A DNA stretch of 64,000 bases from an uncultured Holophaga sp. (GTDB lineage: Bacteria; Acidobacteriota; Holophagae; Holophagales; Holophagaceae). Positions within the stretch are counted from its first letter, which is position 1; every line of letters starts with the position of its first letter. Position numbers and translations under genes: made by a program. The stretch lies in assembly GCA_963664825.1 (NCBI GenBank), contig OY761614.1, forward strand, positions 1,024,001 through 1,088,000, in the 5' to 3' direction. Below, piece after piece: positions 31,291 through 37,062 of this stretch. The notes below the pieces were generated by a model. That model had not been told where the DNA came from. It searched no databases and saw nothing but the letters and a program-made list of their open reading frames with translations.

Positions 31291-32211
31291 ATGACCACAG
31301 CCATCGTCTGCGCCTATTCCCCCGTGGGCCGCGAGGCCCTTGGAGGCCTTCTCGAAGCCGGCGTGGAGGTATTGGCCCTCTACACCTATGTTCAAGGCCC
31401 CGATGAGAGTTGGTTCGAGGCCCCAGCCGTGTTGGCCGAGGCCCGTGGCATCCCGGTTCATCGGGAGCCCGACTTCAACGCCGATCACGTCTTCGAGGAC
31501 ATCCGCAAGGCCGCCCCCGATCTCCTCCTGAGCTTCTATTTCCGGGAGATGATCCAGGCGCGCTTCCTGCAGATCCCCCACCTGGGCGCCTACAACCTGC
31601 ACGGCTCCCTGCTGCCGAAGTACCGGGGCCGGGCGCCCATCAATTGGGTCCTGGTGAAGGGTGAGACTGAAACCGGCGTCACCCTGCATGCGATGACGCC
31701 CCAGCCCGATGACGGGGAGATCCTCGCCCAGGCCCCCATCCCCATCGAATGGGACGATACGGCCCTCAGCCTCACGCTCAAGGCCGCTCGCGCAGGACGT
31801 GAACTCGTGCGCGACTGCGTTCCTCGCATCGCCGAAGGGAAGGCGTCCAGGGTCCTCCAAAAGCAGATCGGCCCTTCCACCTACTTCGGAGGACGAAAGC
31901 CCCAGGACAGCCGCCTGGATTTCGGGATGACCCTGCGGGAGGCCTTCAACCAGATCCGCGCCGTGGCCGATCCCTGGCCCAACGCCTTCCTGGAGACCCC
32001 GAAGGGGCGGGTCAAACTGCCCTGGGCCCTGCCCTCGACTGCGCCCTGCCCCGTCGGCCACTTTCGTTCCACCCCAGAAGGCGTGCTCCTGGGCTTTGCC
32101 GACGGGGCCTTGCGGCTCGTGGCCCTGCACCAGGACGGGTCCCGCAGCGAACGTCCCACGGAGCACGCAGCCTGGCTCCGGGCCCTGGACATCCCCGAGG
32201 CGAGAACCTAA
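31291..32211 (+). CDS. Formyltransferase similar to the ArnA N-terminal domain (N10-formyl-THF dependent)
   Basis: GGAG SD before ATG 31291; PDLLLSFYFR, YNLHGSLLPKYRGRAPINW, GVTLH, and YFGGRKPQDS...IRAVADPWP. Confidence 0.85.
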   Translation: MTTAIVCAYSPVGREALGGLLEAGVEVLALYTYVQGPDESWFEAPAVLAEARGIPVHREPDFNADHVFEDIRKAAPDLLLSFYFREMIQARFLQIPHLGAYNLHGSLLPKYRGRAPINWVLVKGETETGVTLHAMTPQPDDGEILAQAPIPIEWDDTALSLTLKAARAGRELVRDCVPRIAEGKASRVLQKQIGPSTYFGGRKPQDSRLDFGMTLREAFNQIRAVADPWPNAFLETPKGRVKLPWALPSTAPCPVGHFRSTPEGVLLGFADGALRLVALHQDGSRSERPTEHAAWLRALDIPEART

Positions 32212-32669: not shown

Positions 32670-33716
32670 ATGGGTTTGATGGACTGGGGCAAGGCCCAAT
32701 TCCTCGATATTCTCGAGTGGCTGGACGACTCCAACGACACCATGGCCTGGCGCTTCCCCATGCGCGGCCAGGAGATCCAGAATGGCGGCAAGCTGGTGGT
32801 GCGCGAAAGCCAGGAGGCGGTCTTCGTCAACGAGGGCCAGTTTGCGGACTGCTTCACACCGGGCACCCACAATCTGACCACACAGAACCTGCCGGTTTTG
32901 GCGACACTCAAGGGCTGGAAGTACGGCTTCGAGAGCCCCTTCAAGAGCGATGTCTACTTCCTGAACACCAAGCTTTTCAATGATCTGGGATGGGGCACGC
33001 CCAACCCGATCATGATGCGCGATGCGGATTTCGGTATGCTGCGCATCCGCGCCTTCGGCATCTACTCCATCCGGGTGAAGGACTCCAAGAGCTTCCTGAA
33101 GAATGTCGTGGGCACCAACGGCCTGTTCACCGTGGCTGATATCCAGGAGCAGCTGCGCAAGAGCATCATCAGCAAGTTCACGGACGCCCTCGGCGAAGCC
33201 AAGATCCCCGCCCTGGATCTGGCGGCCAAGTACGACGAGATCAGCGATCTGCTGCGCCAGAAGATGGACCCCGAATTCCAGACCATGGGACTGGAGTGCT
33301 CCAAGCTCTTCATCGAGAACATCAGCCTCCCCGAAGAAGTCGAGGCCATGATGGACAAGCGCACCAGCGTGGGCATGATGGCCCCGGTCATGGGCGCCTA
33401 CACCCAGATGCAGGTGGCCGATTCCATCCCGCTGGCCGCCTCCAACCCCGGCGGCGTGGCCGGCATGGGCATGGGCGTGGGCCTGGGCTTCGGCATGGGC
33501 AACATGATGGGCAACCAGATGGGCCAGGCCGCTGCCCAGATGAACCAGGGCCTCGGTCAGACGGGCCAGGCGGCACCCATTCCCGCCGCTCCGACCAAGA
33601 CACTCAAGGAAGAACTGACGGATCTGAAGGATCTCTTCGATTCCCAGCTCATCACCCAGGCCGAGTTCGACGCCCAGCGCGGCACCATCATGAAGAAGCA
33701 CGGGATGGGCGTGTAG
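32670..33716 (+). CDS. SPFH (band 7)-like protein, YdjI/virion-core type, with a C-terminal SHOCT domain
   Basis: LVVRESQEAVFV, TQNLPVL, SPFKSDVYF, WGTPNP, ISLPEEV, a GMG-rich linker, and LKDLFDSQLITQAEFDAQR (SHOCT). Confidence 0.88.
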   Translation: MGLMDWGKAQFLDILEWLDDSNDTMAWRFPMRGQEIQNGGKLVVRESQEAVFVNEGQFADCFTPGTHNLTTQNLPVLATLKGWKYGFESPFKSDVYFLNTKLFNDLGWGTPNPIMMRDADFGMLRIRAFGIYSIRVKDSKSFLKNVVGTNGLFTVADIQEQLRKSIISKFTDALGEAKIPALDLAAKYDEISDLLRQKMDPEFQTMGLECSKLFIENISLPEEVEAMMDKRTSVGMMAPVMGAYTQMQVADSIPLAASNPGGVAGMGMGVGLGFGMGNMMGNQMGQAAAQMNQGLGQTGQAAPIPAAPTKTLKEELTDLKDLFDSQLITQAEFDAQRGTIMKKHGMGV

Positions 33717-33734
33717 CTTCCCCCACACTTCGCA

Positions 33735-34784
33735 TCAGCGCTCCAGGAGGATGGAATCCTGGAGCGCTTTTACGTGATCCAGCAGGAGGTCCGGAGCAAG
33801 GACGGGTCTGTCTTGGGGGGCTGGCCTAGCCTCGATGCGCGAGAGGATGGCAGGGCCCCAAGGCTCCCAGGCATCCAGTCCCAAACGGTCTGCCAACGGG
33901 CGCAACACGGCCTCTGGGCTCGCCACAAGCGCCTCGTACGAGATCGCCGATTGTTCGCGAAAAACGCCTTCGGCCTGCAACTGCCCGATCAAATCGCCGT
34001 AGGCAGACAGGGCCTTTCCGAGGAAGTCCTCGATCTCACCCCCGGGAGCGTTCCAGAGACCATAGCGCTCGGCCATGGCCCGCCACATGACCACATTGGA
34101 TCGCCAGAGTTCCTGGGGCGAGCGCAGGATCCACAGGAAGCGCGCCCGCGGATACCGAGCCGCGAGGGCCCTGTAGCGGAAGAGATGGTTCGGCGATTTC
34201 ACGACCATCCGAGCCTGATCCTTCCTCCGGCACCAGGAGAGAAAACACTCCAAGGATTTCAGCCAACTGGTATCGCTCGAACTCCAGAACCCCGGATCCA
34301 GGAGGGCCTCCAGCTCTGGAAGGCGGCGGGGATCCAGGAAGCCCCGGTAGACACTGGGCACCCCCATGGCCATCAGGGCGAATTCATCCTCCTGGGGCGA
34401 ATCATTCGAGACCAGCACACGATCCATGGGCCTTTGGATCGCCCCAGAGGAGGCCTTCCCCCGGCTGAGCAGCAGGGCCGAAGGATCCATGCACTGCCAG
34501 GTGCGGGGCGCGCCGCACCCTGGAGCTTCCGTGAGCAGTTCGTGCAGCAGAGTCGTGCCCGAACGCCAGAATCCCAGGATGAAGATCAGGCCCTCACCCT
34601 CCGGAAAGGGGAAGGGCTGGGTGCCGGGCCCCGTGCCCCGCAGGAGGGCGAAGTGAGGCTCCAACCAGAGGGCCCGCCAACGGTAGAGCCAGAGGACCGA
34701 GGGAGGAACGCGATCGGGACGGCCCCCCTGGCGCGCCCAATGCACCAAGTCCCGCCCGGCGGCCAGGAGGGGGCGAGGATTCAA
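33735..34784 (-). CDS. PAPS-dependent sulfotransferase (Sulfotransfer_3 / Stf-like)
   Basis: TTG start overlaps the upstream stop (TTGA) behind GGAGG; 5'-PSB loop IFILGFWRSGTTLLHELL, SPQEDEF, and KSPNH...YPRARFLWILRSP. Confidence 0.85.
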   Translation of the reverse strand: MNPRPLLAAGRDLVHWARQGGRPDRVPPSVLWLYRWRALWLEPHFALLRGTGPGTQPFPFPEGEGLIFILGFWRSGTTLLHELLTEAPGCGAPRTWQCMDPSALLLSRGKASSGAIQRPMDRVLVSNDSPQEDEFALMAMGVPSVYRGFLDPRRLPELEALLDPGFWSSSDTSWLKSLECFLSWCRRKDQARMVVKSPNHLFRYRALAARYPRARFLWILRSPQELWRSNVVMWRAMAERYGLWNAPGGEIEDFLGKALSAYGDLIGQLQAEGVFREQSAISYEALVASPEAVLRPLADRLGLDAWEPWGPAILSRIEARPAPQDRPVLAPDLLLDHVKALQDSILLER

Positions 34785-36673
34785 GGCGCCTCCGGTTTCA
34801 GGCCTCTCTTCGTGAGTTCCTCCAGGATCCGCCGGTGCATGGGGCCCACTATTTCCGGCCGGCCTTCGATCATGTTCTGATTCTCGTTCGGATCCCGGTC
34901 CAGATCGTAGAGCTCGCGCCGGGGCCAGGGCTGGGCCCAGGGGCCGAAGTGGACCACGTATTTCCAGTTCCCCTGGCGCATGGCCAGCGAGAAGGTGGGC
35001 TTCCTGGTGCTGAGATCCCTGTTCATGGAGAAGGTGGGCAGGCCTTCGGCCTTGAGGGGATAGGGCTGGCCTTCCATGCCCAGGGGAATGGGGAGACCCG
35101 CCATGTGCAGCAGGGTCGGCGCCAGATCTGCCTGTTCGAAGAGCCGCGAGACTCGCTTGGCCCCTGTGTGCCCCGGAGGCTTGATCAGGCAAGGCACGCG
35201 CACCAGGTCCTCCGTGAGTAGGGGGCCGCCGTGGCCCCCATAACCATGGGAGAAGGATTCTCCATGGTCGGCGCTCACCACCACGAGGCTGCCCTCGAAG
35301 CGCCCGTGGGCCTTCAGCCAATCCAGCAACTGACCCACGGCGGCATCCACGTAGGAGACGGCCTCGTCGTAGCGCCCCTCCAGGAGCTTCTGGCGTTCGG
35401 GATTCCCCCCAGCCGCAAACCGGTAATCAGCGGCGCTCTCCCGGACCCCCCGGACCAAAGAGGAAGGTTCGAAGCGCCCAAGGAAGGGATCCGGTGTCGC
35501 ATAGGGATCATGGGGCGGCACGAGATGGAGCCAGAAGAAGCGCGGACGGCCTGTGGGCGCCCGCCCGAGCATCTCTTCAGCCCAGGCGAGAGGAAGGCGT
35601 GTCCTGTCCCGGGAGGGTGACTGGAACAATGAGGGAACCCCCTGCTGTAGGTACAGTGCAGGCCCCACCCCATTGGCGAATACTGAAGACGGAAGGAGAT
35701 CAAGGCCAACCGTCGTATGGAATAAGCCGCCTTGCACCAGCACCCGTTCGGTACAACGCGTCGGCGTCCCCTGCCAGGCGTGATCGGCAAAGGCATTCGA
35801 GGAGACCGTGCGGATCTCATATCCCGCCCGAGCGAGACAACCCAGGAGGTTCTGGTTCTCCCTGACGCTCCGGAGGGGACGGCCCAAATCTCCGGCATGG
35901 GTCCAGGGCCTGGCCCCGTTCAAGAGACTGGCGAAACCTGGGCGGGTCCAGTTGGCATTGGCGTAGAACCCTTCGAAGAGGATGGCATCCTGGGCGAAGG
36001 CATCCAGGTGGGGACTCGTGGGCCGGGAATATCCGTAGCAGGACAGATGACGGGAGGAGAGGGCGTCCAGGGTCACCAGGATGATATCGGGCGCACTCCG
36101 GGACAAGGCGACGGGCCCACGGCCCTGGACCCGTTTCTGTTGGATCAAGGCCTCCTGGGTCAGGAATCCCAGGGCCAGAGGCAGGATGCAGAGGGCAATC
36201 CAGCGGGGGATCACCAGGCACCGCGCCAGGAAGAGGCCCCTCCAGACAAGGCCCAGGGCGCCTAGGACGAGGAATACCAGAACGCCTCGCTTGATCCAGA
36301 GGGGCGCGGTCTCGGATCCCATCCAGGCGAGCTTGATCGCCAACGCCGTCACGGCCAGGATCAGCAGATTGGCCCCATGGCCCATTCCCCAGCTCACAGC
36401 CCGAGGATAGGGCACACGGGCAAACAGCGAGAGGGCGCCGCCCAGGTAGATCAGGAGCGCCACCGCGAGAGCCGCCGGGAGGAAATTCAGGAGGACCGAC
36501 GCCCCCAAGGCCTGGCACTTCTCCAGAGGGGTGGTGCTCCCCAGCATCACCCAACCCCGCAGCATCCACTCCAGTGGAAGCCAGTAGCCCAGGAAGACCG
36601 TGACGAGGGGCATGGGGGATAGATCATGCTCCAACAGCGCATTCAGGCGATGGATCCCATCACGCAGTGTCAT
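34781..36673 (-). CDS. Membrane-bound sulfatase-like / alkaline-phosphatase-superfamily hydrolase or transferase
   Basis: About 5-6 N-terminal TM segments, then PDIILVTLDAL, NWTRPGFASLL, PPHDPY, YDEAVSYVD, SADHGE and ELYDL..DP.E. Confidence 0.85.
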   Translation of the reverse strand: MTLRDGIHRLNALLEHDLSPMPLVTVFLGYWLPLEWMLRGWVMLGSTTPLEKCQALGASVLLNFLPAALAVALLIYLGGALSLFARVPYPRAVSWGMGHGANLLILAVTALAIKLAWMGSETAPLWIKRGVLVFLVLGALGLVWRGLFLARCLVIPRWIALCILPLALGFLTQEALIQQKRVQGRGPVALSRSAPDIILVTLDALSSRHLSCYGYSRPTSPHLDAFAQDAILFEGFYANANWTRPGFASLLNGARPWTHAGDLGRPLRSVRENQNLLGCLARAGYEIRTVSSNAFADHAWQGTPTRCTERVLVQGGLFHTTVGLDLLPSSVFANGVGPALYLQQGVPSLFQSPSRDRTRLPLAWAEEMLGRAPTGRPRFFWLHLVPPHDPYATPDPFLGRFEPSSLVRGVRESAADYRFAAGGNPERQKLLEGRYDEAVSYVDAAVGQLLDWLKAHGRFEGSLVVVSADHGESFSHGYGGHGGPLLTEDLVRVPCLIKPPGHTGAKRVSRLFEQADLAPTLLHMAGLPIPLGMEGQPYPLKAEGLPTFSMNRDLSTRKPTFSLAMRQGNWKYVVHFGPWAQPWPRRELYDLDRDPNENQNMIEGRPEIVGPMHRRILEELTKRGLKPEAP

Positions 36674-36897
36674 GGTTGGCTCTCGTCATCGGGCTTCGTG
36701 CGATGAAAGGCCCTGCGGATGAGGCCTCCGATGCGGTGCTTGAACTGGATTCCGAGGACGGAGACCAAAATGAAGACGGGGGCCAGCACGCGCATGAGCG
36801 TCCCGGCACTGCCCGGATCCACATAGGCCATGGCATGCAGCTCCTGGGCGAATCCCAGGAGCATGACCGAGAGGAGCACCTTAGACAGCTTCGACAA
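36670..36897 (-). CDS. Small membrane protein with signal peptide and AYVDPG motif
   Basis: TTG start behind GGAGG; signal peptide, AYVDPGSAG, a TM helix and a basic tail. The stop overlaps the next start (ATGA). Confidence 0.72.
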   Translation of the reverse strand: MSKLSKVLLSVMLLGFAQELHAMAYVDPGSAGTLMRVLAPVFILVSVLGIQFKHRIGGLIRRAFHRTKPDDESQP

Positions 36898-37062
36898 TTC
36901 CCCCTCCCGGAGAAAGGAAGGTGGAACACCCCAAGACCCGCACATAGCACGTCATTGTTCCCCCCGCCTGTCATGGATGGCGTGAAGTGTACGCCTCACT
37001 TCACATGGGGGGAATCGTTTTCACTGCTTCTTTAGCGCGCCAGGATTTCCTTGCCCAGCCCT

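Follow-up and report, generated by a model that had tools for sequence, protein, structure and literature searches.

What process could require a microprotein of 75 amino acids, a multi-span membrane enzyme with a sulfatase fold and a soluble sulfotransferase to be encoded side by side? The three genes lie together in a stretch of 64,000 nucleotides, hereafter the window, from the genome of an uncultured Holophaga species (GenBank assembly GCA_963664825.1, contig OY761614.1, positions 1,024,001 to 1,088,000), and are called the cassette here. The peptide is called the YxDP microprotein after its Y-x-D-P motif, and the membrane enzyme the Thr enzyme after its putative nucleophile, Thr243. The cassette is probably a real, uncharacterised functional unit for extracytoplasmic sulfate transfer. 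A plausible hypothesis for its mode of action, whose chances of being right and wrong we judge to be evenly balanced, is that sulfate passes from 3'-phosphoadenosine 5'-phosphosulfate (PAPS) to a tyrosine of the microprotein, from this sulfotyrosine to the periplasmic enzyme and from there to a surface glycan, so that a protein would carry the sulfate. A preliminary description of the window had suggested a trans-envelope sulfation relay with a lipid carrier, in which the peptide acts as subunit or acceptor. The relay is well supported by the co-occurrence of the genes, the soluble sulfotransferase, the predicted outward orientation of the enzyme and the glycan and PAPS context. The lipid carrier is not our first choice, since the invariant Tyr, the replacement of the Thr enzyme by another transferase and the reuse of the peptide with NoeA favour the Tyr.

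Co-occurrence of the three genes and exchange of partners

Related loci were collected with an alignment of 33 sulfotransferases as the query. Taking the top 80 from 410 genome loci and the top 80 from 571 metagenome loci gave a set of 160, of which 88 are well flanked with at least 3 kb on each side. All three genes are present in 81 of the 88, the peptide alone accompanies the sulfotransferase in six and the enzyme alone in one, and so the gene-neighbourhood check named in the preliminary description favours the trio. The gene order is peptide–enzyme–sulfotransferase in 58 loci, enzyme–sulfotransferase with a convergent peptide gene in 13 and sulfotransferase–peptide–enzyme in five, with other arrangements besides. 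Such variety speaks for a functional and not a positional link between the genes. According to the record titles, the loci belong to Acidobacteriota, Pseudomonadota (Burkholderiales, Nevskia, Methylobacter, Sphingomonadales, Thalassospira), Opitutaceae, Eremiobacteraceae and Syntrophobacteraceae, and the cassette is spread over at least four phyla, with cultured and harmless carriers in Roseateles, Pelomonas, Undibacterium, Inhella and Thalassospira.

Seven loci depart from the full set. An arylsulfate sulfotransferase (ASST) takes the place of the Thr enzyme in L093, L100, L114 and L190, L116 (G393) has its Thr enzyme elsewhere in the genome (E 5e-226), as does the short-flanked locus L102, and at L045 an interval of about 9 kb interrupts the enzyme gene, the 5' end of which has the peptide beside it; the seventh is L166. 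In a Nevskia metagenome-assembled genome (L320:4255-16221, G394), the Thr-enzyme gene is split by about 9 kb between its transmembrane (TM) and catalytic parts. A weaker sulfotransferase homologue in G307 is linked to a polyketide synthase and branches outside the cassette loci.

Glycan-synthesis genes are found in 62 of the 88 loci and in 13 of 218 bins of 16 kb of the Holophaga genome itself, a contrast that is inflated by the drawing of the queries from the same loci. The sulfate-activation genes cysD/N/C are found in 16 of the 88. In Burkholderiales loci (L055-L088, L164-L197) the cassette has a glycosyltransferase/flippase cluster on one side and a type II secretion-like cluster on the other, and the type II secretion gene F is present in 34 loci.

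The replacement of the Thr enzyme bears on the chemistry of the outer step. Seven loci that lack the Thr enzyme have an ASST gene immediately upstream of the peptide gene and on its strand. Six of the seven are related and come from Acidobacteriota, with PF05935 detected for L089 and L100 and the others 66-86% identical to L089. L190 has a distant ASST of 433 amino acids in a glycosyltransferase–ASST–peptide–cysC run. In the sulfotransferase tree the two ASST groups fall on different branches, surrounded by loci with the Thr enzyme. L095, nested among the ASST loci, has a Thr enzyme in the slot where its neighbours have the ASST, and L103 has both. Sulfotyrosine is an aryl sulfate, and the substitution of ASST for the Thr enzyme shows that a donor of the aryl-sulfate type fits the outer step. 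Within the cassette, no conserved aryl group other than the peptide Tyr is encoded that could act as carrier, although an aryl lipid made elsewhere is a conceivable alternative. In ASSTs, sulfate from a phenolic ester is first bound covalently to a His of the enzyme, and a set of periplasmic ASSTs is known mainly from non-physiological donors, according to PMC10932419, in part (general background, each likewise in part: PMC12135136, PMC11625862, bioRxiv 10.64898/2026.10.08.757636).

The peptide family also serves another cytoplasmic partner. A search begun from the peptide matched 82 of 351 genomes of the phylum. In 40 loci, taken from the stronger matches across genera and one match to a long open reading frame, a NoeA homologue is present in 32, an alkaline-phosphatase-fold enzyme in 25, both in 20 and the cassette sulfotransferase in none; NoeA is also present in eight of nine further loci. 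According to PMC9758233 (section 8, in part), NoeA is a kinase-methyltransferase, and the fold of NoeB is that of alkaline phosphatase. On pSymA of Sinorhizobium meliloti an unnamed YLDPG microprotein of 71 amino acids (L270:3754-3969, WQP23214.1) is encoded between nodL and noeA, the order being nodL–peptide–noeA–noeB. Plasmids of Singulisphaera and Smac51 also encode similar peptides next to NoeA homologues.

The peptides sort fully by cytoplasmic partner. The nearest neighbour has the same partner for 115 of 115 unique sequences of the sulfotransferase type and 32 of 32 of the NoeA type, and a proline in the TM helix is present in 114 of the 115 but in none of the 32. The window peptide is of the sulfotransferase subtype. 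An out-of-sample test with the genome G309, which has a peptide of this type and the enzyme, was passed, as the predicted sulfotransferase turned up 5 Mb away, in the same group as the loci with the peptides closest to that of G309. In a scan of 271 genomes of the class of G309, in which the top four to seven candidates per genome were scored, G309 is the only one with the sulfotransferase (E <= 1e-30) and has the best scores for the other two parts. Among the best 120 of 215 matches, none is a long fusion of the NoeA-type peptide, which is weak evidence.

The microprotein, the Thr enzyme and the sulfotransferase

The microprotein consists of a signal-like N-terminus, A-M-A followed by Y-V-D-P, one TM helix and a basic tail. 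Signal cleavage is predicted just before the Tyr, and the mature peptide is predicted to have Tyr1 outside, a single TM helix and a cytoplasmic tail (N-out, C-in). The sequence just ahead of the Tyr is consistent with signal-peptidase cleavage (AxA in 101 and CxA in 26 of 150), and the family mean of Lys plus Arg is 0.02 for mature residues 1-12 and 5.9 for the tail. A few relatives, such as L040, lack the signal segment. The peptide matches no Pfam family, and its NCBIfam match is weak and far below the cut-off; a single-protein search with the window peptide found two relatives only, and a plasmid search with the peptide of a relative found no match. A profile search retrieved 5892 clusters (E <= 1e-3). 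Among 133 peptides of the sulfotransferase loci, 132 have Y-x-D-P, the remaining one being cut by a contig end, and the motif is also found in 150 of 150 top library matches; the Tyr is present in 120 of 120 further profile matches. This Tyr is never replaced by Phe, while a second aromatic column of the same peptides exchanges Phe and Tyr freely (55 and 22). The profile was seeded on the motif, yet just one of the 88 well-flanked loci lacks a peptide match, and so these loci hold no hidden pool of Phe variants.

The Y-G-D-P-S/T starts of the mature peptides of L092, L085, L109 and other Terriglobales recall plant sulfotyrosine peptide hormones, a resemblance that is probably coincidental. A third architecture is seen in L269:819-5669 (G323) and L313-L319, where a related Y-I-G-P-G-A-G signal and TM segment is fused N-terminally to a phosphodiesterase-fold protein of about 730 amino acids and a paralogous phosphodiesterase-fold protein comes after it, with a lipoprotein-like signal in L269. 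A small PF13469-type sulfotransferase lies nearby in seven of these eight loci, four of which are close kin, and the fusion would place the enzyme domain on the side opposite to the Tyr.

The Thr enzyme belongs to PF00884 (E 9e-37), and its structure model (predicted local distance difference test score 93) has five N-terminal helices. The sulfatase fold of the alkaline phosphatase superfamily is confirmed by structure comparison (Z up to 39.7, root-mean-square deviation (rmsd) 2.7, 353 residues aligned). Thr243, D203, H388, D469, H470 and H481, which include the metal-site residues D203, D469 and H470, are invariant in 113 of 113 unique relatives. Where formylglycine sulfatases have the catalytic motif (C/S)-x-P-x-R, the window enzyme has T-R-P-G-F, and Arg is outside the five commonest residues at position +4 of the 113 relatives. 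Of the sulfatase signature G-Y-x-T-x3-G-K-W-H, which includes Lys113 of AtsA, G-Y is kept and G-K-W-H is absent, its region holding instead Asn293 in 112 of 113 relatives. A stable Thr intermediate is the transferase solution in the alkaline phosphatase superfamily, and the Thr enzymes of the superfamily are usually phosphotransferases (LtaS, EptA, NPP). An aryl sulfate would resemble the phosphodiesters used by such Thr enzymes in being a monoanion. By the criteria set out in PMC5066984 (in part), a hydrolytic formylglycine sulfatase (S1) is excluded, as the Thr is invariant and the +4 Arg and G-K-W-H are missing. According to the same source, formylglycine has never been shown to arise from Thr, and PF00884 over-annotates such proteins.

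Five TM helices are predicted in the enzyme and the catalytic domain is predicted to face outward, in agreement with the topology suggested earlier. Loops 2 and 4 are rich in Lys and Arg (family means 2.1 and 3.0, versus 1.0 and 0.8 for loops 1 and 3), suggesting by the positive-inside rule that the N-terminus is inside and the catalytic domain outside. The TM region is divergent, with only the W126 column conserved at 80% or more. The likeness to LtaS and EptA that had been noted earlier holds for the architecture of five TM helices and a Thr, but not for the catalytic domain, which is closer to arylsulfatases and PbgA/YejM (Z 34-40 versus 28-29). The best matches of this domain are S1 sulfatases (Z 39.7), ahead of LtaS (29.4) and EptA (28.3). 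PbgA (6xlp) aligns over the full length of the enzyme with Z 34.4 and an rmsd of 16.5, and so the domain orientation differs from that of PbgA. The NCBIfam scores are 32 bits against a cut-off of 825 for YejM, 28 against 970 for LtaS and 19-21 against 561-660 for EptA.

The sulfotransferase belongs to PF13469 (E 3e-25, 90 bits against a cut-off of 27) and has no TM segment and no evident signal peptide, so that its description as a soluble enzyme stands. Its homologues begin at the same residue as the TTG-initiated protein. G-F-W-R-S-G-T-T is presumably the 5'-phosphosulfate-binding loop, and R221 and S229 fit the 3'-phosphate motif; G71, F72, W73, R74, G76, T77, T78, R221 and S229 are invariant in the 33 aligned homologues. 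The structures most similar in fold are mycobacterial Stf9 (Z 22.5) and Stf1 (19.1), and tyrosylprotein sulfotransferases follow at 13.3-13.5. On this structural comparison, the fold does not identify the acceptor.

A proposed tyrosine carrier, its rivals and known systems

The invariance of the Tyr, the replacement by ASST and the reuse of the peptide with NoeA lead to the hypothesis that the peptide Tyr is the carrier. The cytoplasmic sulfotransferase would load sulfate from PAPS onto the invariant Tyr, and the sulfotyrosine would be displayed outside the inner membrane. The periplasm-facing enzyme would then take the sulfate as sulfo-Thr243, or as sulfo-His in the case of ASST, and pass it on, probably to a surface polysaccharide; we infer the Tyr sulfation, the sulfo-Thr243 intermediate and the acceptor from the features described above. 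For the crossing, most simply, the precursor would be sulfated in the cytoplasm, much as RaxST acts ahead of leader removal (PMC11143521, in part), and then inserted by Sec/YidC, whereupon signal cleavage would free the Tyr. Such loading before export would make each peptide a single-use donor, which would be costly; alternatively, the peptide may be recycled by a flipping helix. Loading before Sec/YidC is favoured because no conserved channel is encoded, the TM region of the enzyme being divergent and the ASST anchor different. In the version with NoeA, methylphosphate would take the same route.

Several observations weigh against this hypothesis. The membrane crossing of a charged Tyr is its weakest step. 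The loader acts in the cytoplasm and the predicted place of the mature Tyr is outside, so that modification before export or flipping is needed. The Arg and Lys residues of sulfatases are missing from the Thr enzyme, and we know of no Thr-type enzyme of this fold that transfers sulfate. Related Thr-type membrane enzymes (E 1e-80 to 1e-102) are present in nine of the 271 genomes where the sulfotransferase was not found. The closest folds to the sulfotransferase are Stf9 and Stf1, the tyrosylprotein enzymes being tied with heparan sulfate enzymes at about 13, and four of 120 listed homologues carry a source name after menaquinone sulfotransferase. The peptide subtypes can be produced by co-inheritance alone. 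The loci are not independent, since duplicates are present, at least 33 represent one Burkholderiales context and six of the seven ASST loci form one clade. No MBOAT-like membrane transferase is among the recurrent neighbours. A sulfotransferase of the clade lies beside cysC in G320 (L291, G320:C1:2943724-2944533), and no peptide, Thr enzyme or ASST was found in that genome; this lone gene is either a remnant or in different use.

The main rival, which we consider unlikely, is that the sulfotransferase sulfates a membrane lipid, such as a phenolic lipid or a quinol, which carries the group across to the Thr enzyme or ASST, with the peptide as a structural subunit. The fold similarity to Stf9 and Stf1, which includes the N-terminal helices, the menaquinone sulfotransferase names and the architecture of five TM helices and a Thr, as in lipid-donor enzymes, all point this way. 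An aryl lipid sulfate would also suit ASST and would remove the topology problem of the peptide, and the G320 sulfotransferase does without a peptide. A lipid carrier, however, leaves unexplained why one peptide family with an invariant N-terminal Tyr is combined with either of two unrelated enzymes on the outside (Thr enzyme or ASST) and either of two on the inside that are likewise unrelated (sulfotransferase or NoeA), and why the peptide subtype tracks the inner enzyme. Moreover, the would-be lipid-binding TM region of the enzyme has the W126 column as its sole one conserved at 80% or more, and the recurrent neighbours include neither a gene for lipid synthesis nor a lipid flippase.

More doubtful still is the view that there is no relay, the sulfotransferase acting on a lipid-linked glycan repeat in the cytoplasm and the Thr enzyme with the peptide being a separate periplasmic editor that removes sulfate or transfers phospho-groups. 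The glycan context, the lone G320 sulfotransferase with cysC, the occurrence of Thr-type relatives without the cassette sulfotransferase and the usual phosphotransferase activity of such Thr enzymes would fit. But the slot of the Thr enzyme can be filled by ASST, which is a transferase, the peptide remains beside the sulfotransferase where the Thr enzyme is missing (6 of 88 loci), and the cassette occurs, as in the window, as a minimal insert of three genes without glycan genes. That sulfation of the peptide is an end in itself, giving a RaxX-like signal or a host mimic that is displayed on the surface or shed while the Thr enzyme or ASST edits or recycles it, is improbable: the RaxST precedent fits loading before export (PMC11143521, in part) and the Y-G-D-P-S start of some relatives resembles plant sulfopeptides, but about eight residues outside the TM helix are too short for a diderm cell surface, the context is one of polysaccharide synthesis rather than peptide export, and the same peptide serves NoeA/NoeB.

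The tyrosine-carrier hypothesis can be compared with known systems. In DltB/DltX/DltD and PatA/PatB, a microprotein with an invariant extracytoplasmic Tyr, a location that is predicted in the cassette peptide, joins a cytoplasmic activated donor to an outer hydroxyl-nucleophile enzyme decorating an envelope polymer, and the DltX Tyr is an acyl shuttle (PMC12148441, in part). There is no homology to DltX; the cassette Tyr is at the predicted mature N-terminus (Y-x-D-P), whereas that of DltX is in a C-terminal FxYxxF motif, and the cassette has no MBOAT or SGNH partner but PF00884 and PF13469 proteins, a soluble loader and sulfate as the group. In caprazamycin biosynthesis, the PAPS enzyme Cpz8 makes an aryl sulfate that the second, PAPS-independent enzyme Cpz4 uses as donor (PMC4257720, in part). 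Cpz8 is a distant fold match to the cassette sulfotransferase (Z 8.5). The caprazamycin shuttle is a small pyrone in secondary metabolism, whereas the cassette is proposed to use a ribosomal membrane peptide bridging two compartments. Its second enzyme is usually of the Thr sulfatase-fold type, the pairing of a PAPS enzyme with ASST being limited to the seven related loci and L103. The proposed mechanism would combine DltX-like and Cpz8/Cpz4-like working, without the defining features of either family.

PbgA/YejM, LtaS, EptA and OpgB share with the cassette enzyme, by its predicted topology, five TM helices, an outer alkaline-phosphatase-superfamily domain and a Thr nucleophile; the cassette enzyme falls far below every NCBIfam cut-off and its catalytic domain is nearer to S1 arylsulfatases, and the known transferases of this group take phospho-groups from lipids. 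RaxST is a bacterial PAPS enzyme that sulfates a Tyr of the ribosomal precursor of RaxX before leader removal (PMC11143521, in part), but RaxX is a secreted end product, while the cassette peptide is membrane-anchored and nearly always accompanied by an outer transferase-type enzyme. NoeA/NoeB of S. meliloti and the Lani_1193-1195 trio likewise combine a member of the peptide family with a cytoplasmic group-transfer enzyme and an alkaline-phosphatase-fold membrane enzyme (PMC9758233, in part). Their loader is a kinase-methyltransferase and their cargo would be methylphosphate; section 8 of that source proposes no role for a peptide Tyr. No description of the trio or of the peptide family was found in the literature searched, most subscription papers being outside its reach. 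The tyrosine-carrier mechanism is the bolder part of the proposal.

More generally, we suggest tentatively, with less confidence than for the window cassette itself, that YxDP microproteins are a widespread unnamed class of carriers in which an anionic group is taken through the bacterial inner membrane as an ester of tyrosine, with no membrane transferase involved. The group would be sulfate here, which would give ASSTs and Thr-type 'sulfatases' a natural donor, and methylphosphate with NoeA/NoeB. Each carrier may serve only once, being loaded on the cytoplasmic side before Sec exports it and signal peptidase exposes the Tyr. If the hypothesis is true, polymers would be sulfated outside the cytoplasm without moving PAPS, a set of periplasmic ASSTs would have a natural donor, and a branch of mis-annotated Thr-type 'sulfatases' would have a transferase function. 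The tyrosine-shuttle principle would extend from acyl groups to sulfate, and probably to methylphosphate, with unrelated proteins, and the long-unexplained S. meliloti host-range genes noeA and noeB would become directly testable through the overlooked peptide gene of their operon.

The locus in the window and its genome

Table 1. Positions of the cassette and its parts, numbered from the first nucleotide of the window.
Feature	Position	Strand	Remarks
Whole cassette as insertion	33717..37062		Between SPFH gene and pyrC
Sulfotransferase gene	33735..34784	minus	349 amino acids, TTG start
G-F-W-R-S-G-T-T loop	34551..34574	minus	Invariant residues in 33 aligned homologues
Thr enzyme gene	34781..36673	minus	630 amino acids
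Thr243	35945..35947	minus	Position of the sulfatase formylglycine precursor, aligned to S-x-P-x-R of solved sulfatases
YxDP microprotein gene	36670..36897	minus	75 amino acids, TTG start
Predicted peptide TM helix	36742..36798	minus	Residues 34-52 by hydropathy; Lys/Arg-rich tail next
Y-V-D-P motif	36814..36825	minus	Tyr25 codon 36825-36823, first residue past predicted signal-peptidase site
Upstream region	36898..37062		165 bp between pyrC stop and peptide start

The three reading frames agree in coordinates and letters with the preliminary description, as do the 4-nucleotide stop/start overlaps ATGA (36670-36673, peptide/enzyme) and TTGA (34781-34784, enzyme/sulfotransferase). The peptide gene is on the opposite strand in 27 of the 160 related loci, and so the overlaps are not essential to the unit; a leader peptide or translational-coupling device is excluded by the same count and by the conservation of the peptide as a protein. 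A purine-rich, ribosome-binding-like stretch precedes the peptide TTG, and an alternative in-frame ATG with AGGAG upstream lies at 36831, two codons ahead of the Tyr. Sigma-70-like promoter matches number zero in the upstream region (0.4 in shuffles), and terminator-like matches zero in the cassette (2.3 in shuffles). An assembly artefact is excluded, since public contigs reproduce the cassette: those of run X4 equal 33630-36454 and 36455-36931 with zero differences, and those of run X7 hold a variant copy.

The cassette was found in none of the eight congeners searched. The SPFH-pyrC junction is empty in G007 and G008, holds other genes (metK, a sugar kinase and an ahcY-like gene) in G002 and G003, and is broken across contigs in G006. 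The cassette is therefore an insertion. Its GC content at third codon positions is 0.77-0.80, compared with 0.85-0.88 for the two flanking genes. A core housekeeping function is excluded by the absence from the congeners and by the presence of the sulfotransferase in only one of the 271 genomes scanned. The junction is variable in the genus, being empty or occupied by the cassette or by an ahcY/kinase/metK block with extra genes (L034, L035).

No glycan or PAPS-synthesis genes lie beside the window cassette. Elsewhere in the genome, cysD-cysNC is at C1:1616882-1619559 and a Wza/chain-length/flippase cluster is near 1.91-1.92 Mb, the polymer of which may be the acceptor; a 60%-identical copy of the gene after wza adjoins the peptide in the close relative L040. 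PF05935, a second YxDP peptide and, by tblastn, NoeA were not found in this genome. Weak sulfatase-like paralogues are present at G000:C1:2414312-2415220 and 1698541-1698828. A stand-alone ArnA-like formyltransferase, below the NCBIfam cut-offs, is encoded at 31294-32211 on the plus strand of the window and is not part of the cassette because congeners also carry it.

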